Shown: positions 1-32,189 of the stretch, piece after piece
How the letters are laid out: each line of letters starts with the position of its first letter
Numbering within the stretch: the first letter of the stretch is position 1
Assembly: GCA_008632985.1 (NCBI GenBank)
Contig: QPGO01000017.1
Coordinates: forward strand, 124,001 to 188,000
Source of the DNA: Psammoneis japonica
Lineage: Eukaryota
Length of the DNA: 64,000 bases
Reading direction: 5' to 3'
The notes under the pieces: model-generated
What the model was told of the DNA's origin: nothing
Seen by the model: the letters and a program-made list of their open reading frames with translations, nothing else
Databases searched by the model: none
Position numbers and translations under genes: made by a program

Positions 1-27
1 GAAAACATGCAAAATCAAAGCAAGCAG

Positions 28-397
28 AAGGCACAGTCAGAAAGATGTGCTGTTGGGCCAGCTGGTGGCTCGCAGAGTTCAACAGGGAAAATGTCCCACA
101 GCCACCAGAGAGTGCTGCGCAAACTGCACCAATGCCAGCATTGTTGTCTGCAATGTGTGCTGCAAGAAGCAAAACCATCAAAGACAAGGTTTTTGATCCT
201 CTGCCGGAAGCAAAATGTGCACGAACAAGTGTTGCCTCCCAACAATGGCAAGCAGCAGAAGCTCAAGTGCTGTCTCTGGATGGCAGTGCTTGTCTGATTG
301 GCAGAATTCAACACACAGCAAAACTCCCAACTTGTGCACTTGACTTGCAGCCGACAAACAGCAGTGAGCTCAGTGCAAGCAGCAGAATGACATCTGC
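28..397 (+). repeat. Diverged dispersed repeat, second copy at ~1836-2161
   Basis: Shared anchors aaggcacagtcagaaagatgtgctgttgg, gcagagttcaa, tggcagtgct, cacttgacttgcagcc occur in the same order in both copies. Confidence 0.8.
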
Positions 398-421
398 TTC
401 TTTGTGCTGGCAAAAAGGAAA

Positions 422-1083
422 ATGATGATGGAGGTGAAGAAAAATGGGATAAAGCAGAAAATGAGCCACCACAAAAATGGCACAAAAGTTGATGAAGGGT
501 TGGGAGGCCATTTCAGAAGGTGTGGTGAACTGCTTCTTTGAATTGGCATTGTCAAAATGGTGGTCTTGGACATCTTCGTTTGCTGCTGACATGCAACCAA
601 AGGAAGAGGCAGAAAGCAAGGGTTGTCAGAACAAAAAGCAAAGAGAAAGGGGATGCTGCAGCTGCAAAAGAGGCAGAAAGGTAAAATGCCGATGATGGAG
701 ATGAAGAAAAAAAGGGGACAACATGGAGAATGAGCCACTGTGAAAATGGCGCAAAAGGCAAGAGAGGGTTGGGAGGCCATTTCAAGAGGTGCAGCAAAGT
801 GCTGTTTTGATGGGGAGCCATGAACCCCGTTGGTGTTGTCAGAAGGCTGGTCTTGACACCATTGTTGTTTGCTGACAGCCATGTTCAATGATGGAGATGA
901 AGAAAAAAAGGGGACAACATGGAGAATGAACCACTGTGAAAATGGCGCAAAAGGCAAGGGAGGTCGGGAGGCCATTTCAAGAGGTGCAGCAAAGTGCTGT
1001 TTTGATGGGGAGCAGTGAACCCCATTGGTGTTGTCAGAAGGCTGGTCTTGACACCATTGTTGTTTGCTGACAGCCATGTTTAA
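422..1083. repeat. Tandem repeat, ~196-bp unit (near-identical copies 692-887 and 888-1083, diverged copy from ~422)
   Basis: Unit begins atgatggagatgaagaaaaaaaggggacaacatggagaatga. Copy differences include CpG decay (ggtcggg/ggttggg, ccccgtt/ccccatt). Confidence 0.9.
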
Positions 1084-3589
1084 TGTTTGATTGTGCTTTG
1101 CTCTTTTTCTGTCATGTGCGTGTGCTTCATGACAAACTGCATTCATGCCTGGACAAACCTGTGTGTTGTCAAAGTGTTGTCAAATCAGAAAGATGCTGGT
1201 TGAGAGTGGGGAGACTCATTGACATGCCAAGTGATGTGGTGTGTGAGGCAATGATGTGGGTGCCAGCACAGGAGTGATTGGTGGAGTTGCTTTGCAGAGA
1301 GAACATTCTTGCATCTGCAAGAGTGCTTTTTTGTGCAATTGTGAAATGGAACATCGTGCGGCTGCCATTGGTGTTGGTGCTTGTGGCAAATTGTTGCTTG
1401 GCAGTCTTGTCAGGAAGCAGCAGCAGCAGTGATGTGTTTGTGGAACAACCTCCATCATCAGCGGTTCAATCACGAGTCACCAGCCCTCTCTCAACCAGAC
1501 ACCCTGGGGCTTTTGTGCTCACCCGCCATCACCATGCACATTGTTGTGGATGTTTTCTTGCCTCTGACCTTCTCCCACCAAAGAGTCACATTCACTTTCC
1601 TCTCTGTGTGGAGTGTGCACGCACTTTGCTGTGCAACACTCCATGGCTGAAAAATGAAAAAAAATGAAAAAGAGGAGCAGGCAGTTGCAAAGCAAAATGA
1701 TGACAACACAGGCATCTCAAAACTCCTTGTTTCTGTGTGTCACTGGGATGGGCTTGTTTGAGATGGAATTTGTTTTGGAAAGTTTCTCCATTTCTCTCAG
1801 CAAGCACAGCAAAAATTTTGTGAAATCAAACTGAAAAGGCACAGTCAGAAAGATGTGCTGTTGGATGAGCTGGCAGAGTTCAATGAGGAAAACATCCTGC
1901 CAGAGAATGCTGTGCTGCTGACAATGATGTTGGTGTTGTCCACAGCATGTGCCACAAGCAGCAAAGCCGTTGAAAGACAAAACAGTGTGCTGTCTCCTCA
2001 AAATGGCATGCAAAAGTTCAAGTGTCTCTGCATGGCAGTGCTCATCTGAGTGGCAGCACTTCAACACACCACAAGACTTCCAACTTTCACACTTGACTTG
2101 CAGCCAGCCCACCAAACAGCAACAAGCTCAGCGCAAGCAGCATGACAGCAACAGCATCTGCTCCATTGGATTTGCTCCAGTTGCAAGTCAAAAAGTCAAA
2201 ACGCTGCTCTTGCTGGTGCCAAGGTCCCCTTCCCAAATTTTCTCTCTCATGCACCAGCTGTGCCAACTTGATGATGCCTCTTTCCTCCTGAAAAATGTGG
2301 TGATGGAAATGCAGGCAGTGAGCTTTTGTCACAACTGAAAACAGCAAAACCATTTTTGTTTTCTGAGTGTGGAAGAGGTCTCTCAATGTTGATGCCATGA
2401 TGTCCTCTTGCAGTTGTGCTGCCATGTCTCATGTGTGCCCACACTGCTTGCTCAGCACAGTGACTTTTGCACAACAAGCAGAATCTGGCTTGCTGAAATC
2501 ATCCTGCCACATCCAGACATTGTGCTTGCCGGACAATCCCAAACAAGAATTGTGGCAAAAAAGGCCACGCTTGCAGCTGACATGCATCAGGCTGCTCTGT
2601 GCTTGGCACAGTGACAAGCGTGAGTCTTGTGCGTGCACCTGCAATGTCATGCATCCACATCTCTTTTGCAGTCTTTTTGCAACTTTGTTTCTTCTTTCTT
2701 GAGGGCAAAACTGTCAGATGCTGCTTGTCAGCCAGTGCGTGCTGAATTCTTCAACACATCAATTGGCATTTTTGTGATTGCTTCCATTGCTGTCACATGG
2801 GGCTTTGGCTTTTTTGACTTCAAGGGTCAAACTCTGAGAACTTGCACTTCTCTTCCAGTCTTTTTTGTTGCAACTGTTCTTGCTTGTGACTCTTCTCAAA
2901 GATTCTGTTGGCTGCTGCTGCCCATCCACAGCACTCCTGGATCCATTCACAAAATTGCCCTGCCACCCCAAATCCACTAAACTGCAGGCTCCTTTGGGAG
3001 ACTGGTCAATTCTCTCATCTGAGATGCAAATGCAAGCCTTGGTGCATTTCTCTCCAGCAGAAGACTGCCTGTGTGTTTGACCCCTGGTGGGTTTGGATGT
3101 CTTTTTGGCACACAATGAGAAAGCATTGATGCCACAAAAAACAGAGGCAGTCCCAGCCCCTTCTGAAGACTCCTTCCCAGTTGAGATGTTTGCTTCCTTT
3201 GAAGGCAAATGGCAGCTTCAACACTGCCCATCACAACTCTTCTTGGAAACCCCCCGCCTGCTCTTCCTGACTTGCTTGGTGAATGCATGCAGGATCTCCC
3301 TCTGTTGGAATCTAATCTCTTCCTGGATCTGGAGTTTTGTGCATCCCTTCATGATCCAGTTGGCTGTCCAGTGTTCTCTTGCACTGCATCAGGGAGTGAT
3401 GGGTCAGTGTGCCTTCAGAGCGCAATTTTTGGGTGTGCTCTGATGTTCAAAGGAGTTCCCTTGGTTCATTGTGCTGGGCCTGTTTTTGGATGGTCCCCTT
3501 CATCATGTCATGCAGAAGCTCAGAGTGCTGTCCCTTTAACACTTTGTGTGTCAGGTCCTCAAATTCTGTTGGGAAACACACTGTGAAGA

Positions 3590-4900
3590 CATGGATGACT
3601 GGTGTGATGACCATGCTCTGGCAAACATTCTCAATTGCCCATCCATCTCACAATCATCCATCAACCATCAACCCTCTTGACCAAGCTCATCCAGAGAAAG
3701 ATTTTAATCTCTGGCATCATGGTGCCAATGTGCAGTTGTTCAATTGGGATGTCATCAATGAAGCCCATCAGACTTCCACCGACATTGCTCCATCAGTCAA
3801 CATGTCCTCTCTGGGCCAAGCACCTTTCACCCAGTGGGCCAAAGGCCATCAAGATCAACATGCTTCAGCATCAACTCTTCCTCTGAATGCTCAGATCAAT
3901 GAGCAAGCAGACAAATTGGCAGGTCAATGCCAAGGTCAACACACATCAGATGCAACTCAAGTGACACCCTTTCCCATTGTCAAGCACATCTCAGCCTTTC
4001 AGATGGAATGGTCGCCGCTGGATTAAAAGTGTCAGTGCATTGTGCAGCTGCAGCTCCTGCTCTTGTGGAATGCACCCATGAACAAAACAATTGGGGCGAA
4101 TCAGTTGTTGACAAGATTGGTTGGACCATGCACATTGCTCTTGTGTCTGCAGATTTTCTAAGAAGCAAGAGTCAACCATCAAGCTCATTGTTCATGATTT
4201 GCTGCCTGCAAATAAAATCATCAACTGATGCAACCCAGCAAGACCACATTTTTGCCTTGCATGTGAGCATCCCATGGAGGACAGGGGCCACATCCTTTGA
4301 TGTCCAGACAATCAAGCCTGGAGACAAACCTTTCTTCAAGGTCTTTGCAAGCACTGCAACAAGACAGACACTGTGCCTCCATTGTGAGATTTGCTTTTGT
4401 CAACTCTGGAGGCATGGCTTCAAGACAAGACAGCCTGCAAAACCAATGTGCTGTGCCCCTTGTTTCATCCACTGTGGAGGGCACAGTCCAATGTTGGATG
4501 GCAACAAGCATTTGATGGGCATTTTTCCACCTTGGGGAACACCTTTCAAGAGATGCACATGTGCAAGTCAGGCCTGTTGGAACAGTGTGTCATAAAAAAA
4601 AGACCCCCCCTCCTTTGTGGGCTGCCTGTTCACAGCTCATGACATGACACAGACTCTTGCAAATCTTCCCAATGCCAACAGGCCAAAGCTGAACTCACTG
4701 CTGCATGCAATGAATGCCATGAACACCTTGCCAAAAACAGAGACATTCTGATGAACACTGTGGAAGAACACATGAGCCAGGGCACCTCCACAATTCAAAA
4801 TTGGGTCACCATGGCAAAACCAAGGTTGAAAAAAAGCATCAAGGAAGTGAAGCACATTGCACTGCTTCATGACATCTGCTCTGGTGATGCCCATCCTGGC
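3590..4900 (+). mobile_element. Degenerate 3' part of a non-LTR retrotransposon (RNase H-like domain plus C-terminal CCHC finger)
   Basis: Translation gives WAKGHQD...LPLNAQINEQADKLA (RNase H C-terminal signature), then after frameshifts CLACEHPMEDRGHIL*C and QSNVGWQQAFDGHFS, typical of RNase-H-bearing LINE-like elements. Stops and frameshifts throughout. Confidence 0.7.
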
Positions 4901-6589
4901 TGGTCCTTGTCCTCTTCTGCCATGGTTGTCAATTGTGCTTGAAGTGCAGGCCAGCCCCCAGTGCCAGAGCTGCTGACAATGGAGTGAAAGCACTTAAAAT
5001 TTGGATCTGGTTTCTCTTTTTGGCAGCTGCAGCTTGCTCTCAATGGGTTTGCAGAACAAAACAAGAGTCTTGGATCAAGCATGAGCTGGCAGACCAAAAT
5101 TCTGCTCATGGACCACATGCCATTGCTGGTCATTCTGCACTCTGTACACTCAAGCAAATCAATCAAGAATTTTTGTCACCCAGAAGGACAGCTGGCATGT
5201 CTCTTTGCCATCTTCTGCACCAGCTGAAAGGAAAAGGCTTGAGCAATCCCACTGAGTTTGACAATGTGCACAACATGCTGGAGCTGGCAAGATTTTATTT
5301 GCATGACCAGCTTCCTCAAAAAGCACTCATCAAGCAACATTTTTAAAAGCAGTGCGGCCCTCCTCCTCTGCAGGATGGTGTGGAGAAAGATGCTGGCTCA
5401 CACAGCCACCACACACACTCTTCACAGCTTTGGTTGGTTTTCACAGCAAACTCTGTTGTGCCTTGTTGTCAAATAAAACAATGAAGACACCAAAGGTTTG
5501 CCACAGTTGAAAACTGTGAGATGAGAGAGTGCTTCTCTGTGTTGGTTCAGATGATGCAACAGAAAGAGGATGCAACAGACAGAGGTCTCAATGATGCAGC
5601 AATGTTGCCTCACAGTTGCACAACACAATGCCAAAAACTTGCACATTGTGAGAGAGCTGCTTTTTCATGACAACAGTTGTGGGACCATCTCTGAGTTGGC
5701 ACATTTCCAAACTTTTCTGTCCATGGACAAATGAGCTGGCTGACACAAGCTCACACGTTGGCACTCAGTGAGTGCTCAGCAACAAGCAGCTGTGGTGCAA
5801 GCAGCAAAATCTTTGCACACTTGGCATGAAACATCAGGGGGCAGTTGAGTGCACAACTCTTTCTTCCTTGTGACACAGGCTCAATTTTCACAGTTGCCAT
5901 GCAACCATGCAAGAGCAGACCTTTTCTCAGCACAATGAAGAGCAGCATGAGATGTGCCGGCACATGCAAAACATGATGCACATTGCTTGTGTGCCACACA
6001 CTCTTCACTGTAAAAACTTTGTGACACAAAACAGCTCACTGCTGGCTTCAGCCAATTGTTGCTCAGCAGCACAGCACATTGTGCTGCACATGTTTGTGGT
6101 CTGCAACATTTGCTCACATGTGGCACTCAACACAGGGAACAGGGAGAAAGCATCATGTGCACTGAATCACACACCAAGGGCAACTGAGTGCAAATGAACC
6201 CAGATCAACTGAAACCTGCTGCATGGCACACTCCAATCATGCCATTTTTCATTTCTTGCATGCTCCAAACAAGTTGATGTGCTTCCTGCCTCCTGCTGTC
6301 ACTCCAATGGGCAGAACAGGCAAAGTCATCTCTGGCACTCATTTCCTTCTTGTGGGCAACACTGGCACCTCTTCACATGCCTCAAAGAGGACCAATCAAA
6401 TCTTGCACTTAACTCCTTCAGCTGCCACAGCTTGTGTGCACCCAAAGCTTCCAAGTGGAGACTCTTCTTCAAGGTCACACATTGTCTCTCTGTTGCTTTC
6501 ATTGCAGTCATGGTGAAGATGCTTTTTCCTCCTGTTGGGATGGGGGAGCACAGAAGTTGCTGCCAAACAAGGATGATTTTGAGGGGCAC

Positions 6590-6740
6590 TCTTGTGTGAG
6601 ATCTTCTTCTGGATGGACTTGGCTCTGTGACATTTGGCCTGTTCTTGGACAGGCACTGTGGGTTTCAGGTTTGGCAACTGCACATCTCCACATTGCTCCT
6701 GACATGATTGAAACAACAGCATTGTTGCCACAAATGTGGT
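6590..6740. repeat. Diverged dispersed repeat, second copy at ~10810-10970
   Basis: Shared ttcttctggatggac, tcaggtttggc and ctcctgacatga(t/c)tga(a/g)acaaca in the same order. Confidence 0.7.
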
Positions 6741-9700
6741 GCAGCACCACAAGAACACACTGGCACAGCATTGCCTTTTTGTGTCAAGAAGAACATGCCA
6801 GAAAGCCAACAGAGAATCAGCCATTGAAGACATGACACTCTGACCATTTGATCCTGTGAAAGGAATGGCAGTCACTTGCATGCTGTGACAAGTCCAACCT
6901 GGATGAAGAATGCACAGAAGCAAGCTGGGCAGCAGTCAAGGTGTGAAGCATGAGAGCTTCATCACATGTTTGCAAAGGCCTTGGAATTTCATTTGCCCCA
7001 CTCTTTTTGCAAGGGCACATTTGAGCACAAAAAACAAGAAAGAAGCATGTTCATTTGTTGGAGCAACCACCAGTTGCTGCCATGATGTGTGGCTGCATTG
7101 TTGTTGGACACTTTGGTGCCCCCCCTTGCAAGACTTGTTGGCCCAAAGACATGACACTCATCACTGCAAGGAGCACAAAGTCGAATGAGTGTTCCTTGCA
7201 CCACATCTGGATTTTAACAAACCATTTAAAGTGCGCACCAATGCACCTGAGTTCTGAGTGCTGGCTCAGAGCAGAAACAATGAGAAAGCCCAAAAGTGCC
7301 CAATCAAATTGTGCACAAAATGCACCAAAGAGAATTGCTTGCCATTGTGGAAGCACCAAACAGCACGGGTCTGTCCTTCTTGGACAGTGCTTGTTTGCAT
7401 GTTCTGATCACAAAAACCCAGTGCACAGCACACTCAACACCAAACACACCACATGCCAGTGTTTGATTTGCAAAATAATTGGGCCTGGGCCACAATCTGT
7501 CAAAGGCCACCACCACCACTCTGGTTGCTCATGCACTGGGTCATTTCAACCTCAGCCCACCCCTGGAAAGAGAAAGAGATTTCTTGACAGTCATGCAAAT
7601 GCCAGAAGTTTGCCTTCTGCACAAGGCAAGCTTGACAGAAGCAAAGGAGGTGTGCCAACAATTCTCGCCAGCTTTGAGCCAATTCAACTTGAGCAGCAAA
7701 AAAGCACAAGCAGCTGTTGCAGACAGACGACACTTCAGAAGGGGATGTTCCATGTTCCATGTGGCAGGTTTGCTGCCAAGACAAAATTGTTGTCCCATTG
7801 GTGTCACTGCAAAAGCAGACAACTGGCTGGTGTCATGTGTTCAGTTGTGCCATCCTGGGGCAATGCACAGAGGCATTGGTTGCCCCATGTCTTTTCTGGC
7901 TCAGCATGATGTGTGAGAGCTGCAGAGTGCCCTCTGCATGCTCCAAAAATGCAAGGCATGTCAGAAGACAAGGCAAAACCTCAAACATGGGAAGCCACCA
8001 TGGAAAATGTGGCTGACAGTCTTGTGTGAGATCCCACACATGTGGACATGACAGGGGAGTGCACAGTCCAGCAAAAAGGAAAAAATGAATTTGTGCCCCC
8101 AGCTGCAATGATTGACCTGGTGACTGGGCAACTCAAAATTGCTGAAGTGTCAGCCAAAAGGGCAAGAATCTCACATCAGATGATGTCAAGCATTCCTGAC
8201 TGTGTGGATGTCCATGGCCAAGGAAGGTTGCCTTCTTTGACAGAGGAGCCCAGCTCATCTCTAATTTAGCTCATGGCCAATTTCAGTCAAAAAACAGAGC
8301 AACTGTGGCCTTCAAAACAAACCAACAAGCAAAGCAATCCACAGTTGTGCTCCACAGTGGAACATGCACAACAGCAGATGAGCAGGAATGTTGTGCAATC
8401 TTTTTGAGTCCAGGTCATGAAGTCAGATGACAACAACTCATGGAGTGGCATGCTTTCTGTGGCCACATCTTCTGAATGAGCAATGGCACACACCACCAGC
8501 TGGGCAAGCTCAAAGCAGCCAGTGTGTGGCAGAGACACCATGTGCCAAGTGAAAGTGTGCCCATGGACAAAAAAGGCAGCCATTCACTGATCATGAAGCC
8601 ACCAAGAAAGTCTTGGTCCTGGCTTTGGCTGATGCCATCATGCTTGCTGTTTGTCCCACACCAGCTTGGGCAACTGTCCAGTTGGCAGCTCCTGCATTGG
8701 CTGCTTGTGTTTTCAAAGACAAAATTGTTGTGCCTGCATTTGCAAGCATGCAGCAGGTGCAAACACAACAAGCCACAACCAGTTTTCCAGAAAGCAGACA
8801 GCTTGGCCTTTGGAGACACAAGAAGAGAAGATGTGCCTGGCCAGTTTAGCCCCAGCTGCAAACAGGGAGGCCACAGAGACAGAGAGAAACACAGCATGAG
8901 ATGAGCCAACTTGAAATTCAATCATCCCAATCAACTTGTCTGTCATTCTCAACTCAGATTGATTTGACACAACAGCCCTCACATCAACAACAGGAGCTGG
9001 CTGCTGACAAAGCCACCACAAAAATCTTGCTCCTGGCTTTGGCCAAGGCCATTGTGCCTGCCATTTGTCTTGCAGCTTGGATGTCCATCCAATTGGCAGC
9101 TTCCCCCTTGGCTGCTGCCCTTTTGCTTTTTGTTTGTTCCATTTAATGGAAACAGCCAATTTTGATTGTTTGCTTGAGAAAGAGAGAGAGAGCTTCAAGT
9201 GCGGAGCATGCTGACATGCCACAGGGGGCAGCTGCCCCTTGCCAAACAAGAGAAAATGAAAAAACACTGGGCTGATTGTCGTGCAAGCTTTGCCAAAGTT
9301 GTTGGCCCATTTCAGCAACAGCTGCACAATGTTCTGCCATTTCCTTTGCAACACAAGTCATGTCCAGTTCACACCGTTGGTTGGCGCTGCTTCTAGGCTG
9401 CAAAGCTGCAAAGTCAGAACATGTCATCCAAAATGGCCACATGCTGCCACAGTGACTTGTGCCATTCCATCCAAAGCTCTGGGTGCACAGCTCAGTGTCA
9501 AATTCCTTCCAAATGTGTCTGTGCCTGTGCAAACATTCGATGGCTCAAAAAAGCAGCCTTTGCGTGGTCGTCCAAAAACCATGTTGTAAAACTCACCAGT
9601 TGTTGAGATGTTCAAATGTCTGAATCATCATTCCTGTTGCTGCTGTCTTGGGAGCTTGGCAACTCATCATCATTGCTGTCATCTTTCAATGTGGTGCAAA

Positions 9701-10333
9701 CATCTCCAGTGTGATCCTGTTGCCCATTTGGATTTGTTCCAGACTTGAGTGGCATGCACATGCCCATTTTCACACAAAAAATGAAAGCTTTGTGCATTCT
9801 TCAACATTGAAACAACCACATTTCAATGGTTCTTGCAAGAAGCAAAACAACAAACAAACAAAATTTGAACCAGCTGATGGCCCCATGACTTTCAGCAATC
9901 ATGGTTGCCCCCTTTTTCAAACCCTTTGGAAATTGAGTTGCAAGGTGAGGACCACAGCATTTCACATGGCCCGTGTCATCAACATCAACATCAACAATGA
10001 AAATGCTTGCCACAGGCTGCAGTGCAGCACAAAAAGACCAGCCTGTCAGCAACAACAACTGAGCCTCATTTCACTCACAATTTGCCTCTGATGACAAGCT
10101 CTTTTTCACTGCCATTTGCACTTCCTCCACAATGTCAACTGACACAAGTGCTCCAGAGTTGTTTGTGTCCACACAAAGCATTGAAAAGGGGTCCATTGTG
10201 GGCTGAGTTTTGTTTCTCCTTGCTGATCAATGACTTGGTCTGCCATCCTCAGTTTTGAGCACATGGGCGTGAAGCAAAGGACACACTCTAGATGCAGGTG
10301 GGAATCTGTGTGTGACCTGCTGGGCCCACAGCT

Positions 10334-10499
10334 GTGCAGCAGAATTGCTGGGTGATGAGTGTGCCAAGAAATGACTGCCAACTGAAAAAGAGGAAATTTT
10401 GCAAGAGTGCACAAACTCAGTGCAGCAGAATTGCTGGGTGATGAGTGTGCCAAGAATGACCGCCAACTGAAAAAGAGGCAATTTTGCGAGAGTGCACAA
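10334..10499. repeat. Tandem duplication, 86-bp unit x2
   Basis: gtgcagcagaattgctgggtgatgagtgtgccaagaa starts at 10334 and 10420. Copies differ at CpG sites (gactgcc/gaccgcc, ttgcaag/ttgcgag). Confidence 0.9.
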
Positions 10500-11305
10500 T
10501 CCCACCCATGATTGAAGTGTGTCATTTTTTGTTGTTTGCCCAGCTGCAATGTTTGGACAAATTCTGCAGAAAAGCACACATGGAAATTTGCATGTGGGAC
10601 GCACATGCAACAACACGCACATGCAACGACACATGACAAAAAAAAACTCTTGTCACACATGTCAGAAACAAGAGAGCCGCCACACCCACCACATCCTGCC
10701 ACATTCAGTGAATGTGTGCAATGTTCAGTCCTTTTAGTTGCTGCAGCTTGGATGCACCCAAAGCATCCAAACAAGAAGAGAAAGTTGGGTGCGCAACAAT
10801 CTCAGTGTGGTGTGGGTGCTCTTTTGAGCTCTTGTTTTCTTCTGGATGGACCCAGCTTTGCAAGATTTGGCCCATCAATTCTTCTTCTTGGAAAGGCACG
10901 TTGTGGCAGGTGCTCAGGTTTGGCGATTGTATCACATCACTCCTGACATGACTGAGACAACAACGTCGGCATCATGAACGCAATGCGCCGCAAACTAACA
11001 CACCGACACTGTGGAAGGGGGCACATGCAATGCCAGAAAGCTGTTGTGTGTGACGCCGGTGCGAAGCAGCGGAGGGAGGAGGCGATCATTGGATTCCTGA
11101 TTCTGTTCACGATACCACTTACTACAGCACTACAGCCGCACAGATACTACGTTGAATTTGGTACAGATTCTACGTGACCATTGTTGTCCGACCGCCGCTA
11201 CTTCTCACGCATCGAGTGCATCTTACTCCCGGTCGCAACAACGCTGGTGTGTTCGAAAGGATCGATTGGTACAGAAGTGTAGTTGACAAAAGACGAAACG
11301 AAGAT

Positions 11306-12279
11306 ATGAAGGTGCGGCAACCGAGTCGAAGCGCTGTTGGATGATGTCTTGATATATGTGGATTATGGAGAAGCGGAGACGAATCATCGACATGGCGATT
11401 GTCGCGATGGATTCTCGTGTTGCTGTCATCGCAGAGCTCAGTACCCCATGCCCATGAGCTTCATGGTAGACGACCAAGTCGATAGCCACCATATATCCAA
11501 GGACTACTATACTAACCGTTGCTTGTGTTGCTGTTATTTTGGTGCAGATCAATATCGCTGCCCCGAGCACGGGGATGCAAAAGGTGATCGAGATTGATGA
11601 CGAGAAGCGTCTTCAGAACTTGTACGAGCGTCGCATGGCCCAGGAGATTGACGGTTCCGTGTTGGGCGAGGAGTTTGAAGGGTACATCCTTCGCATCTCT
11701 GGCGGAAACGACAAGCAGGGATTCCCCATGCGACAGGGCGTGTTAACCAACACCCGAGTCCGCCTCTTGTGTAAGAAGGGACACAAGGCGTACAGACCCC
11801 GACGTGCTGGTGAGCGCAAGCGTAAGTCTGTTCGGGGTTGCATCGTTGGACACGACATTGCCGTGCTTAACCTCGTCGTCACCAAGGTGGGAGATAACCA
11901 AATTGCAGGATTGACCGACGACACTGTTCCGCGTCGTCTTGGGCCCAAGCGTGCCAACAAAATCCGCAAGCTCTTTAACCTTTCCAAGGAGGACGATGTG
12001 CGCAAGTACGTGATTGCACGCACCTTTACCAACAAGAAGGGCGTTACTGTGCGCAAGGCACCAAAGATCCAGCGTCTTGTCACCCCGCTCACCCTGCAAC
12101 GCAAGCGCGCTCGAAAGGCAGCCAAGATGAACAGTGTGCTTCGAAACAAGGAGGAGGCGGCTGCATACAAGAAGGTTGTTGCCCAGAGGCTTGCCGAGCA
12201 GAAGGAGGCCCGTCGGTCTCTTATCTCCAAGAGGAGGTCGACCCGTAAATCTGCCAAGCTTGCTGCCGAGGGCAAATAG
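11306..12279 (+). CDS. RPS6: 40S ribosomal protein S6 (eS6); exons 11306-11311 and 11548-12279
   Basis: ATG AAG|gtgcgg...actaac...ttttggtgcag|ATC AAT ATC gives [14 protein letters not shown]. Contains [43 protein letters not shown] and [11 protein letters not shown]. Confidence 0.98.
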
Positions 12280-12586
12280 ACATGCTCTGTTGGCAGTAAA
12301 TAATAAAAAGAAAAAGTTTGGTATCGTTTTGTTGAGAAGTGATGCAGTATCAGTAGTTTGTTGATGGTTGTGCGGTACTGTAGCTACAAGGTAGAGAATA
12401 TCCACAACACCAATACAAGCGCAACGCCAGGGTATTTACAGACATAGACCAGCCTATCGCAAACGAAATAAACACTGCGTCATCGCAAACTCAATCTATG
12501 ATATGGGATACTCTGAACACGCCCGCAAGCTGCAATTGATGATTCGTTCTTCCGCTTTGTATTTTGAAAACCTCCCCCCAAAGCCA

Positions 12587-13035
12587 TCATGACGATTCCG
12601 CAAGACCAGCCGGATTGCTCACAATTAAAATTACAGAATCACCTCTTAGAAACATCTTGCTCACGTATCGGTCTTTATTGACAGCCATTCCCTTTGTTTT
12701 GCCCTTGCCTCCTTTGGAATTCTCCGTCCACATTTCTTTCACGTCTTCCAGCAATCTTTCAAAAATATGAGTAGAGATAAAGTGAGAGAAATATTCAGAT
12801 GGATGCTTATGATTAAAAGACAATGTAAAAATACGCACGCCAACTGACTGTTGGGTACTCACAGATTCATGTGACGGTCGTATGCCTTGACGCGGCCCAA
12901 CAATTTGTGATTGTTCCGCACATTGACCAAGATTTGAGTATTTCCCTTAACAGCCTTATAAAGAACACTAAATGGGCCAGATTTTAAGTCAGTGCCGGAA
13001 GCAGCTGCTTCTGGAGGGGGCTCGGTGCCGCTCAT
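12587..13035 (-). CDS. SNRPD2: Small nuclear ribonucleoprotein Sm D2; exons 13035-12863 and 12755-12587 (113 aa)
   Basis: Spliced product ...[50 protein letters not shown]...[20 protein letters not shown]. Intron gtgagt...gaaag of 107 bp restores the frame. Confidence 0.96.
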
Positions 13036-13846
13036 GGTGATTTCAAGGAAAAATTGCTTTTCGCTTTAGCTTCTCTTTGTTTTCGTGCTCGCTCGCGCGC
13101 GAGAGGTGCCTCCTGTCCTTCGACCGTTTGAATAACAACCGTATGTAATTACAATTAATACATACTTATATATAGTAATATTGAAATAATTAGTTTTGCA
13201 GATAGTTATGGTCTTTCAGACGAGTCATTTGTCCTTTCTACACAAATTTCAACGTGATAATTGAGTAAACTATCATATAAGAGTGTCTAATATTAAAATC
13301 ATTTATTTCTGTAGGATCACGTAAAGATGTACTGCTACACCCGCGAAGACCATCCAGTGAGAGAGGGGAAAGCTTCACAGAAACTAAACGGGAAGTGAGA
13401 GAGACGCCAATGGGCGGTGTATAGCGGCATGGACAACCGCCCAACCATCAACCACAGTTAACGGGGTAGATCATTAAAGAAGGATATAATATCGGGGAAA
13501 TAAGTGGTACGTTGATGGAAGCGCAGAGAAGTCAGGTCTCCGCGATTGAAAGCGCAAAAGTGAGAGAGGTGCAATAACGTTGCTGCGTTGAGTTCCATGT
13601 GGTGTGCTTGCGTTTGTCTGTAGGACTTGTGTGAGAAGAAGTACTGTAAGCTCTTTGTTTGATTGTATGGGTGACCCCGTATGGATCACTCAAGCTGCGT
13701 TTTGTTTCATAAGGGACTGCGTAAGTCTTGGGTGTGATCGGTCGTGGAGGAGGTGAGCGTTGGGTATAATTTTCGTATGGAATTCCCATTCACTCCTTTT
13801 CTCTTCCTGTCGTGCATAGACACAAGGCTCTTTGATAAGGAAAACA

Positions 13847-16800
13847 ATGAGTTCGCTTCGTTTAGCATTGAAACAGTCGCTGGCGGAGAGTGGGCAACAA
13901 CAAGCTCCGAGGAAGAGAGACACTGAAAGACGAAAGAAGGATGGACGGCGACGAAGAAAGGGAGAGCAGCCAAGAAAGAGGGGACCCGGGAGACCGAGAA
14001 AGGATGGGACCTCGACATACTACTCACCTGATGATGAGGAGTCGAACGGGAGCTCGAGTAGCGAGAATGAGTTCTCAGGATCCAGTGACAATGATACAAA
14101 ACCAGCTTCTGTGGACAGAGCTGCTGCGAGGGTAAAGCATGACAGCGAGTCGGGAGACCACAGTAGCGATGGTGACGATTCTGTGCGAAGGAGAAAGAAG
14201 ATCAAAAAGAAGCGCGCCATAAAGAAACATAGAGATACGGCAGCTAATAGGATACAGAGTCAATGGAAGAAGAAAAAGGGGAGCAAAGAAGAGAAATCTA
14301 CCCATGCGAAGCAGGTCATGTCAGAAGAACATGCTGTTGCTCGGAAGCCAAAGAGCTCTGAAAAATTGCAGCAGGAGTCGACGGCTACTACGGGATCGGG
14401 AAAAGCCAAAACTGTACCACCTCCTGCTCATGAGATCATATCTCATATAGCCGGTCTTTCTGTGGAGTCTCAGCGAAAGCATCTTGCAGCTGGTTTGAGA
14501 GTCAAGGTGAGTCGGTTATTTTGTCTAAGTCCGCCAGAAGTAATGTAATTCTTATGACCAAAGCTCACCTGTCGAATCATTTCGTGTTTTCAGGTGAGAT
14601 TCGAGATGAAGAAAAAGAAAGACGGAAAGCTGATACGGAGGCGAAAGTGGTACGGAGGGCTCGTAACTGGGGCTTCCAAAGGAGGTAGTAAGATTAGAAT
14701 CAAGTATGATGATGGGACGACAGAAGTATCAAAGTACCCCGACGAGGATGTTGTTGTGGATGCAGTGGGGAATGGCCGGCATCGCGTGCCTGATGATTTC
14801 TTTCTGCCTCCAGTCATGTCTGAAGAGAGTGACGACGATAACATGGAAGACGAGCCTGAATCTCCCGCACCCCGATATGCAGTGTCCGCGGACAACAAAG
14901 GATCCCGCGATGAGAGAGATAGCCCGAAGCCGCGGCGAAAGATGACGCCATCCTCGAAAAGTCCGTCCGGGACCGCAGAATATCAAAGACAAAGGACACG
15001 GAGGATTGAAAGAACCTGCCGATCCAGACACGCCGCTTGCTCCTCCGGAGCCTCCCATTGACGATTATTCGAAATCTCCGTCGCCAGTGTTCCGTGGTGT
15101 GCAACTCTCACATTCACACGACAGTAGCGAGACCTCCGGTTCCAAAAACGTCAGGAAACGCGAAGATGATTCTGTCGAAAGTGCTGAACATGATGACGTG
15201 GCCGAGATGGCTGTTGATGAGAGTGTCGATATACCGGAACCTGCGTCAACGCTAAAGAAATCGAAGGCAGCCCTCAGACAGTGCATGATGAAGTCGAACG
15301 GTACTCTTTGTCGAGTTCGGCTACAAAGGTGAGGAAACAATCGCCAGCGAGAAACGTTATGTCAAAGAAGCCATCGTTGACAATAAGGTTGAAGCCTCCA
15401 AGGTCGCTTCGGGAAGATAGTAAAGAACCAGGCGCCGTGATTGAGGAGGAAACCAAAGTGCCAGATCACGACGACAGTAGCTCCGACGAAGATATGTCTG
15501 TGATGGGATGGAGAACATTGCATCAGGTACCGTCGACGCACTTATGGCTGGAAGTAGTATCACTACCAGCACAGACTTAACTGCAAAAGCTGAAGATGGA
15601 AGTGCAGTGACAAGAATCTCGGATCCGAAGGTTCACCACAACGTTGGTGAAGTTTCCACGGGTGATACAACGAAAGATCAATCGTTGGCTGGGAGCAAAC
15701 GTCCTGTACCTAGCGGCACAGATGATGATCAACCGCCGAAAAAGAAACACAGCAGCGATCCTAACGACGAAGAGCAACGTGGTTCTGTGCATACTGATGC
15801 CGGTACATCTGAGTTCTCTGTTGTGGGTGCGAAAGGAGATGCGGCGGCTATTGAAAGGATGCCTAGCACGGATTCTGCGGTTGTCATTGAGAGCGAATCG
15901 GTGATAAAAGGAAAGACAGAGAAAGTCGCTTCGGATAAACTTGAAGTTCCGACCAGCATTGAAAAGCAATCCGTCGCAGGTGAGCCCTAGAGCCAAAACG
16001 GCCCTTATTAACTGCCGTTGTCGGAAAGAAATCCGAGAAGCCCGAGAATAAGAAATCTGGATCTCCTCTTTATACGGAAGGCCTTGATGACAATGTAAAA
16101 GGATCTCCTAAGGGCGTTGAATCACCGAAAGCTCTCTCGTTGGACCCGAAGCAATCAAGCAGCGTGAAGAACCTTTCTAACCTTTATCTTCTGTGGCATC
16201 CCCTCCTGTCTCCAAGTTGGGCTCTACCGAGGGTGACATTGCAGCTAAGAGAGATCCAGTACTTAAGGGGTCAAAGAACAGCGCTTTTGAAAAGAAGACT
16301 TCTGCAGTGCCTGGCGAGGATGCAGAGTTGAAGACAATGCCTACGGTTACATCCAGATCAGACGAGGACTTGGGAAGCAGGGCTATGACGCCTACTAATG
16401 TTACATCAGAAAGCAAGGGGTCTACGGTAGGTGTTGCCCGATCCGGTCGCCGAGCTGCCCAGCAGGCCAACCAACGTATCGCATCAAGACAAGAGCTAGT
16501 GATCCAGGACCCATTTGCAAAAGCCAGAAGAAGAGGGGTAAAATGGACACAAAAGTGCAAGAAAACACTGGCAAACGTAAAAACCGTCGGGGAGAACGGG
16601 ACGAAGATGAGGATGACGGTCGCCATTGGGTGAGATGCGACAACTGCCAGAAATGGCGATTGCTTCCTCGCACTGTTGAAACAGAGAAGCTCCCGAAGCA
16701 TTGGTACTGCGAAATGAACGTGTATGATTCTGCTCACAACAGTTGTGATGCCCCTGAACAGAAGTTTGAGGAGGAAACGAAGAAAAAGAAAAGAAAGAGG

Positions 16801-18156
16801 GGTCGTCCTCGTACCCAAACCCCGACCGAAAGACAAGAAAGTAAGGAAGACATCCGGATGCGCTCAATGCAGGAGCCTGCATCGATGGAACCGAGTGCAG
16901 GGAAGGGCAAACAACGAACTCCCTCGAGAAGCCCGTCACTTGAAAGTCGCGAAAAATTGATAGACGAAGAATCGCCACAGAAGGGAAGGAAATCATATCC
17001 GACAGCTACGGAAAGAGCGTCGCCCTCAAATAATGACATGGACAGTGGGGGCAAGGCTGATTCGTCCGCGCGAAAGCAGCAGTATGCTTCGTCTGCGAAG
17101 AAATCGAAGTCGTTTGAAGCCGACGAAGAGCTAAACAATTCAGAAAACGAAGAAATCGCTGCTGAAGTATCGGTGCCAAAGAAACGAGGGCGGAAAAAGA
17201 AAGTGAAAGCAAAGGTTGGTAAGGCTGCATCGAAAGACGAAGATGATGCCGATAACCAAGAATGGGTTCAGTGCGAAAATGTGAGAATGGAGAAGGCTTC
17301 CTCCGAACATATCATCTGAGGACCTTCCTGAAGTGTGGTATTGCAATATGAACACCTGGGACAAGGCTTCAGCGAGTTGCGATATCGAGGAAGAGAAAGG
17401 CGATCCAAATGTTCGGGAGTACAACATATTGGGACAGGTCAATCCTCCTATGGTACGAGCGGGAAATTGTCATACCGTAACCTCATTTTCGCCAAAACAG
17501 GCAAGAGACACAACCGCTTGGTATCGGAAAGGACCAGAGCAGCAGAGTCTCTCTTCGCCACCATCCCGGATGAAGATTCCGAAGACATCGTTAACCACAC
17601 TGTTAAGTATGCCCACTCAAGTGCGTTTGTGCCTCGAAAGTCGAACGCTACTACCCTTGACGATACACGAAGGGTGTCTCTTTTCGATTTCATGCACCAC
17701 TCTAATCTATGGGCTGAACTTCGTTTGGGAAGCAATGGGAATCCGCACAGCCACATTGAATCACCAGAGGGGTCGTTCGATGGGCTGTCAGCAGAAACGA
17801 AGCGGTCGTTGAAAGAATTCGTGTTTCACGCTTTGGGCACTGGATCTCTTGCTGGACACGAGGTACTTCTTGAAGCACAATGTCGACAGTGGGAAACGAG
17901 CCAAGCAAAGTGGGAAGGACTACGCGCTTGTTGCACTTTGGACGTTGTGACTGGGATACTTCAAGAGTTGGTACAAGATGGATTGGTTGAAGTCGTTCCA
18001 GAAAACGCATTGCAAGTTTCTGCTGTCGATAAGTCTCCAAGGTACCGGCGTATTTCCGCTGCAACTTTGCTAAGTTCCTCACCACCGTCACTTTCAAAGG
18101 AACGCGCAAGCTCTCGATGCATGAAGATTTCGAAGCCGTGGAAGAATCGCCAGTAA
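13847..18156 (+). CDS. Large low-complexity nuclear protein with a Tudor-like domain and two CW-type zinc fingers (chromatin reader); several apparent frameshifts
   Basis: Intron 14507-14593. Tudor-like WYGGLV...IRIKYDDGTTE. CW1 HWVRCDNCQKWRLLP...WYCEMNVYDSAHNSCDAPE at ~16625. CW2 EWVQCE(K)CE(K)WRRLPP...WYCNMNTWDKASASCDIEE at ~17260 needs two single-A insertions in A-runs. AT-hook-like RGPGRPRK and KRGRPR. Consecutive ORFs overlap in shifting frames. Confidence 0.8.
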
Positions 18157-18296
18157 CGTCTGTTCCACATGATTCATTCCAGGGCTGGCCGGGAGGGAAA
18201 TAAGTTGGGGCTAGTAATGCGTACCATATGTTACTAAATGTAAGGGAAACATTTCAGATCAGATAAATCATCACAACTACGGTCACAGTACTAATA

Positions 18297-20578
18297 TTAG
18301 AACCAAGTAGAGTGCCGATCGATCAAACCCGGAATTCGCCTTTTCGCCTTTTTCTCCGATCCGAAGCCTTTACGCTCCTTCTTCAGCAAACGAATTAGTT
18401 TTTCAACAATCTGGTCAAACGTCGGTCGCTCGTCCATGTCAATACTGTTGGTAGTAGAAAGACAGGCACGTTAGTGAGGGAAACTTTGCGGTTTGTAAGA
18501 CAGGAAAGGCTGCATCTGAACGTACCTCCAACAAGACGTGATGAGTTCCGTCAGCTCGACTGGCCACTTCTTGTTCAACGGAGGCCTTTCACCACCATTG
18601 ACAACACGTTTGTAAAATTCCTCGCGGTCCATCCCTTCAAAAGGCTTCTTCCCCGCATTCAACTCCCACAGAATGATCCCTGAAGCAGAACATGAAAAAC
18701 ATCTAATAATTTAGCAAAGATTTCACGACACCTTGGGTGCACATCAACCATCGTGGGCCTGTCTTGTTGTTCTCACCAAAAGAGTAAACGTCGACCTTAT
18801 GGTTATATTCTTCCGATTTTGCCACTTCTGGAGCCATGTATCGAAGCGAGCCTGTTTCGCCACTCATGTCATAGACTTGATCCGAAGCAGGGTTAGCATC
18901 CTCCACGATTCGAGCCAAACCGAAATCGATAATTTTGACCTGGCCGTTCAGCGTAAATCCTGTCGATAATTTGGAACAAGACACGCAAGTGAGAAAGATT
19001 GCGGGTAAGGGATGATTCCACAAAAGAGCGAGCCGCACTTACCTATATTGTCGGCTTTGAGATCTCGATGCAGCACCATGGACCCAGGTATTGCGCGCTC
19101 ATGGAGATAAGCAAGGGCATCCGCAATCGACTTGGCACAGTGTAACACGTCCCCATACGAGAACTGTTTCTTTCGCCAAAAGCGTCGTCTCCGATCCCTA
19201 ATTCTATTATCATACCCCAGCATTTGGGACATTGTTCCTCCATCTAACCGCTCTAGCACGATAAATCGAACTCCCTTTGTAGTAGTTCCTGCACCAACCA
19301 GACTGCAAATGTTTGAATGATCTAGTCTCGAATGAAGCGCTGCAGGAAGAATGAAAACACGTTTTAGATGAGCAGAGTAACGCAACGATGAATTTGTAAG
19401 CGAAGAATTGTAGGCGCACCAAGTTCGCTTTCGATTTCATTGATTGCCAGGACCACATCTTGACATTCTGGTTTAAGCGTTTTGACAACAACGGGCTTGC
19501 CATTGAGGACCGCAGTGTGAATCCAGCTATTTCCTCCGTCCGTAAGGTACTCAACATTTTTGAGTTGTCTCCATTGAAGATCAAGCTGAGCTCCGGTAAT
19601 GGATCGTTTTTCACTTATGCGTTTAATGACGGCGGGTGAATGTCGCGGCATGTGTTCAGATTGCGACAACTCCAAGGATTTCGGTTTCCGCACCACTGGG
19701 CGATCAATCAACCCCTCCTCGGCAAGCGGATTAACCGACGCGACAGCAGCAGCCAAGGACATGTGCACAAGAAACTCCACCGCCGTAAGTCTCATAACGT
19801 TTCGCCGAATAGAAAAATAGATAATGGTAATGTTTGTGTTGGATGCCTCGTGGCAAACTGGAACAGCCACGGCGGTGCGCACATCGCTAATGGATAGCCT
19901 CAGTGCTTCAGTTTCTGAGGGAGATTGCGCTGTCACCCACACAACATCCATGGCCTCCTTGGCCCGCTTACACAAGGCTGGTGATAGTAAATGTGTCCGT
20001 TCCGAAGATCGTTCTCCGTAATACACATCCACCAACTCATTTCTGACCGAGTCGTCAAGCGCCGTTGGTCGTAAGTGTGAATTCGTCAACTGATGTGTTT
20101 TCGGTCCTGTCCGGAGCCACATTTCTGCGATATCAAATCCCATGACCTCGCACGCTGCCCCCAAGCAAGCTTCAACGGAAGCCGATGACGGATGCAACAG
20201 TCGCTTGTGATAAATTGAATGCGTATGATTAATTGCACTGAGTGACTGCACGGGTGCTGGTTCTCCACTGCTACCTATGGCCGCACCCCTAGAGCCTGGC
20301 GGTGGTGACGGAGACGGTGTCGCCCTTCTTACACCTGCTTGATCGACCAAACCGGAAGTAGGCGAGGAGCCGTTCCTGTCTCGGAAAGCTTGAGTACTAC
20401 CATAGGATACGCCGTCGGTCGAACCAATAGTCCACGGTGTTGACGGCTGAGCCGCTTCGTCGATATCCAGATCCTCTCCTGCCGCCGAAACGGATGTTTC
20501 ATCGGCGGAGGACGTCATCGGAATTGTCCCGGCAGTTCTCGGGTTCTCCACATCCACGCGGGTTGGATGAGACATCAT
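18297..20578 (-). CDS. TKL-like Ser/Thr protein kinase with N-terminal GAF-like region; exons 20578-19420, 19339-19043, 18959-18777, 18679-18526, 18444-18297
   Basis: Four GT-AG introns restore one frame with VVVK, HRDLKADN, IIDFG, GETGSLRYMAPE, DVYSFGIILWEL, GERP and ERPTF. N-terminal MGFDIAEMWL...RTAVAVPV pattern resembles a GAF fold (inference). Confidence 0.9.
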
Positions 20579-21907
20579 TTCCGACAACACCGATCAGAAG
20601 TCAGAAGGTTTTTCTGACGCACAAAGAATTTCTTATCGATTGAACGTGGCTGCTCAACAGATTGTTCTCTTGAGACTGAGAAAGAAATTTACAGAAAACA
20701 AGGATGTAATGCTAGATGCAGCGAGACAGCAATCGCGATAGTTTAGAGTGCAGCGTTGGTCAGGGTTTCTTGTTTCTCGCTCTGCCTCAGCCTACCATAC
20801 AGTACCTAATCTAATGCTTCTTCGTCGTTTTGGAGTTTGCGGCACTCCATCCTCCGCCACCCTCCACTGCGCTGCGCTCGCGCTGCATGAACGGTACTTG
20901 GTAGGGCCCTACGTACCGTAGTGTCGTACCGGTACAGTAGAAATAATATGAGCCTTTGTAACATAGATAAACAGATATGAATAATATATTTAGCTGCTGC
21001 TGACCAACGCCAAATTTCTCCACACCCAACTAACACTGTGTAACCTGTACACTTTAACCGCGAAAAACAAAATGGTAGGTGCCGCTGCTGTTGACGATGT
21101 CGTTTGTCGAAATTAATGAGTACGAGGACAATTTTTTGATGCATTATTACTGTTTTATATCAATACTAACAATGTGTATAAAAACATTGCTCTCATATTG
21201 ATCAGGAGGCCGTTTGTAACAACCATTCTGTGGGTGCGCGAACAGCTTGTAAGACCGGCACGCCGCCGACGATCTCGAAGCGCTAAAGAAGGATTAAAGT
21301 GTATGAGGACAATGTTTGATGCAACTTTTTTCGTTCAATATCAAAACCAACTATACTTGTAAAAGCAGGGCTCTCATACTCATCATGAGACCGATCGTGA
21401 CGGCCCTACTGTTGGTGGAGAAGCCAGCGAGACCGATAGTCGATATTGCCGCCGACAATCTCGAAGCGCTCAAGAAGGATATCGAGACTCGTCTTGGAGT
21501 CTTTGTCACAGATATTCAAGATAATAATCGTCATGCCTTGGTCATGCAACATTCCAGCCAGGGAAGAGGTGGTTTCTACTCACTTTTGGTGAACAAGCAC
21601 GACAGGCACTCCTTGATGCTGGTAACTCGCCATCTACGACGTTGTTAACTATCGTCCGGTCTTGTAGGATCCTTCGTTTGGGAAATACGGTGCCGTATTC
21701 ATAAAAGAAAAGTGTGGATCTGTATCCATTTCATTGGCTTGAAAGCAACCGTCGTTAACAAGCGCCGCCTCACTCGTTATGTGCATTGGATCTGTTCTTT
21801 GTTTGTATAGAAAGTCGTCTATCATGTTGGTCTATCATGATATCGAATTTGTGGAGGCGGAATCACGTATTTACAGAGTATGACATGGAAAGTCAGTTTC
21901 ACGATGG

Positions 21908-23433: not shown

Positions 23434-24380
23434 GCTTTCTTGCAGCATCGATGTGTAGCTTGACGTCGGGAGAATCTATGACAGAAGGTTCTCTTGCAAC
23501 GGCAGCAAAATACCGGTACGAAATCTATCGGTTTATTAGAATGTTGTGTACTGGATGACCACTACGTTTCCCGTGGCTTCTAGAGTTTTCTGTTTGTAAG
23601 ACCTTTGGTAAGGCACTTCCACCAAACATTTCAACCAATGGCATGGAGTCAGTCTACGCTCGTTTTCTAAAGCTAGTACACGAGTATCTCCTTTCATGAG
23701 CTGTAACACCTACTCGAGAGAAAATGATCATACGCTGTCACGCTGTGCTACTAATTACCCCCCATAGTTCCTACTTATATTCCGGATGCTTGGACCCCTT
23801 GTCTACAACATACGACTAATGGTTCGCAGCATCAAACCGAAGCTCCGTTTCATCATCGTCAACAAGATGCTTTTTTGCACGGTCCTTCCCCTCCTTTTTG
23901 GCTGCAGCCTTGGCTTCTGATTCCGTAAGCTTGGCTTCCAACACCTCACGAGCCTTGCGTTCTGCTAAAGCCATGGCCAAGGCATTTTCCTCCGCCTCTT
24001 TTGCAGCGATCGCACTGGCTTCCCAAGCAGCTGCTTCGGCTTCCGCTTTCCTTCGATCATCATTCATGGACACCACGATCTCAACCGCGTTTTCCAAGGT
24101 TTTGGCAATGATTCTCTGTTCCTTGAGCACTTCGGCTTGATTCTTGACCTCTTTGGCATGTTTCTTGATTATGGCTGGAAGGTTGTCAACGAGGTTTCTG
24201 CGGCTGTCCGTGAGGTTCTCGTTGCTTTCCTCCTGAATAGGAAGGTCGCGCTTGGCATCGATGAGGTCGCGTTTCGTTTCTTCGTTCTTCGTCATAGAGC
24301 TTCTTTTGAGCTGCTTGGAGGACGCCTTGATGCTTGCGGGCACGCCCTTGAAATCTGCCGGCGTCGACACATCAGACTTT
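21908..24380. repeat. Tandem segmental duplication, copy A (~2.5 kb)
   Basis: Collinear with 25981-28442 from aagaggc(t/g)catcactcggctcgtgacggtcaacgcg to ccggcgt(c/t)gacacatcagactt; offset about 4.07 kb. Confidence 0.95.
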
Positions 24381-32179: not shown

Positions 32180-32189
32180 TCAACAACGG

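Follow-up and report, generated by a model that had tools for sequence, protein, structure and literature searches.

Loss of TpA across two domains of a diatom contig follows a T-A-Y context and points to mutation in place

Cytosine is the base deaminated by the repeat-induced point mutation (RIP) and APOBEC defences, and hypermutation by ADAR acts on RNA, where A is changed to G with a preference for U or T 5' of the A and for G at +1; the native tRNA site of TadA/ADAT is U-A-C-G. Here we analyse a 64,000-nucleotide stretch of the diatom Psammoneis japonica (contig QPGO01000017.1 of assembly GCA_008632985.1, positions 124,001 to 188,000; hereafter the window), in which two long domains have lost nearly all TpA (TA) and most of their CpG (CG). 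Among the closest described systems, RIP of ascomycetes is a transition hypermutation of repeated DNA in a dinucleotide context (PMC2621366, in excerpt), and a TadA-8e variant edits A within 'YAC' (excerpt of PMC13109818); PMC10953296 was considered as a further precedent for that context and set aside, as 'YAC' there denotes a yeast artificial chromosome. Dinoflagellate 5-hydroxymethyluracil is described, in excerpted parts of the sources, as enriched over repeats (PMC11071213) and tied to transposon silencing (PMC11572971); reports from the 1980s, as cited in PMC11071213, gave it a preference for TA and TC contexts, and the same source found no 5-hydroxymethyluracil motif in Breviolum. A search of full-text literature, with most subscription journals outside the coverage, turned up no description of TA and CG being erased together, nor of silenced DNA hypermutated from A:T to G:C.

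The window consists of a depleted domain D1 (1..11100), delimited by observed/expected ratios (o/e) of TA, CG and TG/CA per kilobase together with a boundary profile, a gene island of ordinary dinucleotide content (11100..33500; TA o/e 0.18-0.78, CG o/e 0.77-1.29) and a second depleted domain, D2 (33500..63200), none of them assigned to a strand. Across both depleted blocks the ratios per kilobase are 0-0.21 for TA, 0-0.66 for CG and 1.6-2.1 for TG/CA, and within D1 they are 0.01-0.07, 0-0.27 and 1.77-1.96, respectively; GC content stays at about 48% across the whole window, blocks and island alike. TA is lost throughout D2; of its CG, only about half has gone at 34-39 kb, and the loss is uneven in the remainder. 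The domain includes a less converted patch (35063..35650, no strand) with 14 TAs in mixed contexts. In what follows, depleted-domain counts were taken over 1-10950 and 34000-63000, counts without the patch omit the 700-base stretch 35001-35700 that holds it, and the island serves as a stand-in for the unmutated state in survival comparisons.

The 130 TAs left in the depleted domains are strongly biased by their flanking bases. With R for purine and Y for pyrimidine, 6 are RTAY, 45 are of mixed class (RTAR or YTAY) and 79 are YTAR, an order opposite to that of the island (295/481/147). The ranking holds in each domain (2/9/19 in 1-10950 and 4/36/60 in 34000-63000) and sharpens without the patch (4/35/77), as expected from the original prediction, which had named RTAY lowest, RTAR/YTAY intermediate and YTAR highest once all NTAN tetramers were counted. 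Among the 30 TAs of 1-10950 we found TTAA 10, CTAA/TTAG 7, CTAG 2, ATAA/TTAT 6, GTAA/TTAC 3, GTAC 1 and ATAC/GTAT 1, with no ATAT, ATAG/CTAT or CTAC/GTAG; the 100 TAs of 34000-63000 comprise TTAA 21, CTAA/TTAG 27, CTAG 12, ATAA/TTAT 12, CTAC/GTAG 11, GTAA/TTAC 9, ATAC/GTAT 4 and ATAG/CTAT 4, with no ATAT or GTAC. Survivors that had been singled out earlier by position are present (TTAA at 1081 and 4024; CTAA at 2978, 3313 and 8262; CTAG at 9394 and 10289). The near-absence that had been claimed in 1-10950 for ATAT (0), ATAC/GTAT (1) and GTAC is likewise borne out, the GTAC at 5144..5147 (no strand) being the sole one of both domains. In chi-square comparisons the pooled 130 depart from what base composition predicts (p = 3e-21), from the NTAN proportions of the island (1e-44), from the NTGN plus NCAN of the domains themselves, which lie one transition away from TA (3e-24), and from a Markov null based on the xT and Ay dinucleotides (1e-12). 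Each domain is significant alone, the weakest result being that of D1 against the Markov null (p = 0.002). Equal loss of all NTAN after correction for composition, the outcome that had been named as fatal to a flanking-base preference, is rejected (deviance 177.7, 9 degrees of freedom, p = 1.6e-33).

Survival of each context, expressed as domain relative to island with 35001-35700 excluded, falls from 0.43 for TTAA, 0.27 for CTAA/TTAG and 0.23 for CTAG, through 0.06 for ATAA/TTAT, 0.049 for GTAA/TTAC and 0.041 for CTAC/GTAG, to 0.013 for both ATAC/GTAT and ATAG/CTAT, 0.007 for GTAC and 0 for ATAT. A Poisson additive model, in which each strand adds a loss term set solely by the base 3' of its A, fits all ten contexts (residual deviance 6.4, 6 degrees of freedom, p = 0.38), with half-site loss exponents of 0.43 for A, 0.83 for G, 2.42 for C and 2.63 for T, that is, a five- to six-fold dependence on the flank. 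The TA bias thus supports, in quantitative form, the mutation target T-A-Y that had been predicted. The accompanying claim that YTAR is resistant stands as relative protection and fails as immunity, these sites being themselves 2.3-4.3-fold depleted (survival 0.23-0.43). A at +2, equivalent to T at -2, gives extra protection, so that the most persistent site is T-Y-TA-R-A: T occupies -2 in 53% of survivor half-sites versus 25% in the island (Fisher p = 6e-12 with Y at -1 and 0.036 with R at -1), and enrichment among survivors reaches 5.1-fold for TTTA half-sites and 2.5-fold for TCTA half-sites.

Loss of CG forms a second arm. CG o/e is 0.19 in the domains versus 1.02 in the island, and at 38 repeat-pair sites, overlapping pairs included, a CG in one copy stands opposite TG or CA in the other. 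The bias among surviving CGs is weaker than, and opposite to, that of TA, with RCGY retained (RCGY/mixed/YCGR 150/217/92 versus 102/245/113 expected, p = 3e-7). GCGC is the best-retained context (survival 0.44 versus 0.13-0.23 for others), and the half-site order, T-CG and C-CG > A-CG > G-CG, is mild. The footprint of TA loss is both broader and sharper than that of CG loss (10900-11100, 33500-39000 and 62000-63200). At the right edge of D1, TA is still 0 in 11001-11100 and its loss ends at about 11100, with CG already normal from about 10900; on the other side of the island TA falls from about 33500, and CG o/e slides gradually from 0.64 to 0.05 over 34-40 kb. TA loss extends past CG loss by about 100-200 bases at this left-hand boundary and by about 1.5 kb or more at 33.5-35 kb. 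A decayed piggyBac-type transposase (36400..37569, minus strand) sits where half of the CG is retained and TA is gone. That TA is gone where half of the CG persists indicates a TA arm that either outpaces the CG arm or has other targets, which speaks for an active process rather than one slow equilibrium; the CpG arm is probably a separate, slower process, the decay of methylated CpG. As a side observation, the GC/GC dinucleotide class rises in the domains from an o/e of 1.01 to 1.26, driven by GCA/TGC, which is doubled and is the most enriched trinucleotide.

These comparisons bear on the possibility that there is no dedicated TpA mutator and that both losses stem from a slow bias in mutation or repair that depends on neighbouring bases and has acted on methylated heterochromatin for a long time, combining decay of 5-methylcytosine at CpG with a repair or damage bias at TpA. 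Diatoms methylate transposons (PMC9998398, in excerpt), and the graded, uneven loss of CG and its mild half-site order would suit such a process. The depth of TA loss would not, with a TA o/e of 0-0.05 in most kilobases, far under that of CG, and with complete loss where half of the CG is retained, the piggyBac remnant included; nor would edges that are sharp within 100-200 bases or a flank dependence so strong and so cleanly additive. We regard a slow bias as unlikely.

A different objection is that the survivors record gain rather than loss, TA having been erased without regard to context and the present TAs newly made from TG/CA or within A/T runs, for example by C>T at T-CA or by A>T in A runs. 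Mixed-class survivors are indeed mostly RTAAA within A runs, and in repeat pairs the YTAR sites stand opposite CA in 7 of 7 cases (overlapping pairs included). The available precursors, however, are evenly spread and predict 31.8/68.1/30.1 RTAY/mixed/YTAR sites rather than the 6/45/79 observed (p = 3e-24), so that no 20-fold difference between classes could arise from them. Were T at -1 the sole requirement, TTAC and TTAT should match TTAA in frequency; measured against the island, they are 7 to 9 times scarcer. Moreover, new RTAY sites arising from ordinary transitions would build up unless they were still being selectively removed. An origin of the bias by gain therefore appears improbable.

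The depletion carries the marks of mutation in place. Domain and island share the same base composition (A 0.258 versus 0.260), and among the ten dinucleotide classes only TA and CG drop while CA/TG climbs (TA o/e 0.04, CA/TG o/e 1.83). Summed over TA, CG, TG and CA, the content of each flank class is conserved (63.2 versus 62.9, 56.5 versus 59.6 and 55.1 versus 57.3 per 1000 tetramers). In-silico conversion of TA and CG in the island brought the correlation of its 4-mers with those of the domain up from 0.60 to 0.95-0.97, a rough procedure whose exposure was twice that intended and which was used for these correlation figures only. Alignments of repeats within the domains show 56 CA-versus-TG doublet mismatches, a number in which overlapping alignments are counted more than once, and 9 of the next doublet type. 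Copies across these alignments are 75-96% identical in four letters and 89-99% identical in purine/pyrimidine code, with individual pairs rising from 80 to 94.6%, 80 to 92.5%, 75 to 93% and 76 to 89%; because identity rises in this way, the copies were converted independently after duplication. The repeats in question, none assigned to a strand, include a 194-bp tandem array (61502..62028), one copy pair of which differs by 15 CA-versus-TG doublets and rises from 80% to 94.6%; a 188-bp tandem array (39983..40706) with CA/TG doublet differences and one column that reads TA, TG and CA across copies; and a 195-bp tandem duplicate in D1 (692..1085) whose copies agree at 96% of positions in four letters and at 99% in purine/pyrimidine code. 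The polarity of TA columns in the tandem arrays is ambiguous. Taken together, these results show that the TA and CG depletion arose by mutation in place and not by avoidance.

Duplication alone does not appear to be the trigger, since a 2.5-kb duplication within the island (21908-24379 and 25982-28442; 83% identical, 89-92% in purine/pyrimidine code), encoding related coiled-coil proteins of 302 and 360 residues, is not hypermutated, with TA o/e of about 0.6-0.7 in most kilobases and 0.32 at 24-25 kb. The window contains no second copy of most of the domain sequence.

Coding remnants within the domains point the same way. The piggyBac-type transposase (Pfam DDE_Tnp_1_7, E 3.9e-08; eight homologs, E 2.9e-51 to 2.3e-23) has no Tyr among its 390 residues, with 5.1% Cys and 3.3% His. 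Four Tyr positions kept in homologs read His or Cys in it (WYG>WHG, QYV>QHV, SYF>SHF and SKY>SKC), and a change from D-E to D-K fits CpG>CpA at a codon boundary. All-frame translation of 1-11000 and 33900-63999 gave 103 stop-free frames of at least 120 residues, 99 of them within the depleted domains, and a Pfam search of these 99 returned two credible matches, the transposase and a decayed ankyrin-repeat coding remnant in D2 (55587..56237, plus strand; Ank_2, E 4.1e-06), together with one sub-threshold match. A non-mutational origin, in which foreign or selected DNA avoids TA and CG by composition, could appeal to viruses, known from excerpted literature to avoid CpG and UpA; composition equal to that of the island, conserved flank-class sums, repeat copies that differ by CA/TG doublets and the decayed transposase make it very improbable.

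DNA contigs of the public sequencing run X1 span 1-20000, the longest piece measuring 5873 bases, with 0-7 differences per piece; the pieces within D1 measure 302 to 5810 bases, with 0-3 differences each and a word depth of about 59-77. A sequencing or assembly artefact, in which modified heterochromatin bases were misread as G or C, has no direct support beyond the possibility that X1 is the source sample, runs against this agreement of contigs over 302 to 5810 bases of D1 and, through misreading on both strands, would presumably have left CA/TG bubbles at former TAs that break 31-mer contigs, so that it is hardly credible. With clusters at 819-829, 10039-10042 and 15174-15244 and 2 further differences left out, and with X1 as the only run compared, the differences between X1 and the window in D1 are TG/CG 3, CG/CA 1 and TG/TA 1, so that 5/5 are of these types versus 5/13 in the island (Fisher p = 0.036), a weak hint that TA/CG-type changes still segregate in D1. 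Separately, summed X1 word depth reaches about 8500 at 10006-10672 versus 55-110 elsewhere; this segment, where a tandem duplicate of 85 bp (10334-10499) lies alongside an A-rich stretch, probably represents an element present in the genome at very high copy number.

The original prediction also held that the change is A>G in T-A-Y, equivalently T>C in R-T-A. The order of context classes cannot separate A>G at A followed by Y from the mirror, T>C at T-A followed by Y; the products can. At YTAY/RTAR flanks, per 1000 tetramers, the domains have gained 15.9 YTGY and 6.9 YCAY and have lost 10.05 TA and 13.09 CG. Writing p for the fraction of lost TA that became TG and q for the corresponding fraction of CG, this gives 10.05p + 13.09q = 15.9. 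Block-bootstrap estimates of p are 0.93 at q 0.5 (95% confidence interval 0.77-1.09), 0.80 at q 0.6 (0.65-0.95), 0.67 at q 0.7 (0.51-0.82) and 0.54 at q 0.8 (0.38-0.69), and the mirror model (p about 0.2) would require q above 1. Two independent estimates put q itself at modest values: 6/13 conversions in repeat pairs with mixed flanks and a CG in one copy lie on the Y-CG side, and the survivals of the CG classes (about 0.28, 0.16 and 0.15), treated as additive per-strand losses, give about 0.6. The YTAY products therefore favour A>G at T-A-Y provided that CpG decay is not strongly directional (q no greater than 0.7), so that the predicted direction holds conditionally on that of CpG. A window-wise regression aimed at telling the direction of TA change from that of CpG change was uninformative (p 0.36, confidence interval -0.48 to 0.88). 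The Tyr codons of the piggyBac remnant cannot decide the direction: a purine precedes each of the four conserved positions as well as a fifth, variable one, which makes all of them RTAY. A 115-base paralogous segment keeps TTAT and GTAC in its island-side copy (33266..33380, minus strand), and its domain-side copy (35047..35161, plus strand) shows TTAT>TTGT and GTAC>GTGC with CTAG and CTAC kept. The sequence outcome is alike for deamination of A on one strand and modification of T on the other.

We propose that the two domains are silenced diatom DNA, derived from transposons and decayed genes, that has been hypermutated in place at TpA with a T-A-Y target, and we consider this reading likely. 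Under this proposal, TpA and CpG, the two pyrimidine-purine steps that are their own complement, would be changed by transitions into TpG/CpA. The TpA arm would be A:T>G:C and would act on each strand independently, converting A about five times faster before C or T than before G or A, with an A two positions downstream slowing the conversion further. R-TA-Y, which presents the target on each strand, would go first, mixed sites would be intermediate and T-Y-TA-R-A would last longest. The agent would probably be a chromatin-targeted DNA-modifying enzyme; it could be an adenine deaminase that recognises T-A-Y or a thymine modifier that recognises R-T-A. Of the earlier claim that an enzyme rather than generic TpA avoidance is responsible, the mutational origin stands and the enzyme is a reasonable inference, none having been seen: no deaminase domain was found in the 12 island and right-edge open reading frames scanned. 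The more specific view that this diatom possesses a genome-defence mutator of new chemistry, a chromatin-targeted A:T>G:C enzyme at TpA working alongside CpG decay, we offer tentatively, as possible.

Several observations weigh against this proposal. The survivors number 130 TAs from one window, and the ancestral state is approximated by a coding-rich island. Some survivors, the RTAAA sites inside A runs, look newly made, and the repeat-pair sites that compare YTAR with a converted copy, which all read CA, would also fit new TAs from TCA. The directions of TA and CpG change are confounded, a likelihood grid giving a ridge from (rTA 16, rCG 1) through (2, 2) to (0.25, 64), and p drops to little more than half at q 0.8. 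CTAC, a predicted target, is retained in the domain-side paralog. Finally, X1 may be the window's own source sample, so that its agreement is not independent support.

Outside the domains, the island carries the Pfam domains Ribosomal_S6e, zf-CW and Pkinase (kinase fragments), its S6e protein being 93% identical to proteins of two centric diatoms. Run X2, whose contigs carry GT..AG joints, gives spliced contigs on the island; it has no contig on 1-10672, which was not taken as evidence of silence. CW-type zinc finger domains read histone marks, and one occurs here in a lysine-rich protein (16543-17319, plus strand, E 1.5e-17). A SAP-domain protein (63493-63999, plus strand, E 5.6e-11) begins just beyond the right edge of D2; the four stop-free frames that fall outside the domains lie beyond about 63.2 kb, and one of them carries this SAP domain. 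Scans of the window for tRNA and Rfam families returned no matches. Among relatives of the piggyBac remnant, P0130, a public Joint Genome Institute (JGI) 'hypothetical protein' of 395 residues, has 0.5% Tyr, 4.8% Cys and 3.0% His, versus 1.7-3.8% Tyr in the seven other homologs, and reads WHG, MCV and SKC where the others read WYG, M/Q/H-YV and SKY (SKF in one). The same erasure may thus be present in other public data, annotated there as genes. Of 308 metagenome-contig loci of transposase relatives, a list that favours intact copies, 80 were analysed, and none had a TA o/e below 0.44, so that they offer no hypermutated copy for comparison. TTAA sites were also considered as piggyBac target-site duplications and set aside, the best inverted-repeat match over 119 TTAA pairs being 10/16 and the control maximum having a mean of 9.1 and a 95th percentile of 11.

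If the proposal is correct, silenced DNA is driven to a state that is free of TA, poor in CG and rich in TG/CA at unchanged GC, with TAA and TAG stops erased. TAA and TAG being nearly absent, long open frames occur in all six frames and gene callers would over-predict, so that such domains would yield false proteins in annotation. Domain-restricted A:T>G:C change at TpA in nuclear DNA, with a target motif that can be measured, would constitute a new class of mutator, from which naturally occurring enzymes that edit adenine or modify thymine in DNA might be drawn; an adenine deaminase in this role would amount to a natural A>G editor of DNA whose sequence preference is intrinsic. The motif predicts the order in which a reporter would be converted, RTAY first and TTTAAA-like sites last, and the product on each strand, and it makes candidate enzymes assayable on short oligonucleotides.

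Comparison with the described systems places the domains near several of them, RIP being the nearest in concept and opposite in chemistry. Like RIP, they show in-place transitions confined to repeated or silenced DNA, acting after duplication in a dinucleotide context and leaving sharp compositional domains. In contrast, RIP is C:G>T:A mostly at CpA, creating TpA and lowering GC, whereas the domains lose TpA by A:T>G:C with GC unchanged and do not bear the RIP signature of C:G>T:A at CpA with raised TpA and lowered GC; TG/CA, the substrate in RIP, is here the product, and the host is a diatom. The CG arm resembles decay of methylated CpG, with a CG o/e of 0-0.66, a gain of TG/CA and a gradation by distance from the island, and conversion of CpG to TpG/CpA within a defined domain is what we found. 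Decay of CpG, however, spares TpA, and the TpA loss of the domains is deeper, sharper and wider than their CpG loss.

The systems that act on A or T are closer in the base changed. The target A after a pyrimidine and before C recalls TadA/ADAT and the adenine base editors derived from it, a resemblance of context alone (A after T, with a loss exponent of 2.42 before C versus 0.43-0.83 before purines). The natural substrate of TadA/ADAT is tRNA, its DNA activity having been engineered, and in the domains T at +1 is as sensitive as C. ADAR shares the A>G change with T 5' of the A, but ADAR-type editing fits poorly, as its preference for G 3' of the A does not appear here: G at +1 protects (0.83 versus 2.4-2.6), TAG contexts survive best after TAA, and, whereas ADAR acts on double-stranded RNA, the changes here extend over a DNA transposon, gene remnants and the whole of the DNA between them. 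Dinoflagellate 5-hydroxymethyluracil offers a parallel of another kind, an enzymatic modification of T on repeats with a TA context in the old reports; it is a modification and not a heritable T>C change, and nothing in the present analysis places it in diatoms.

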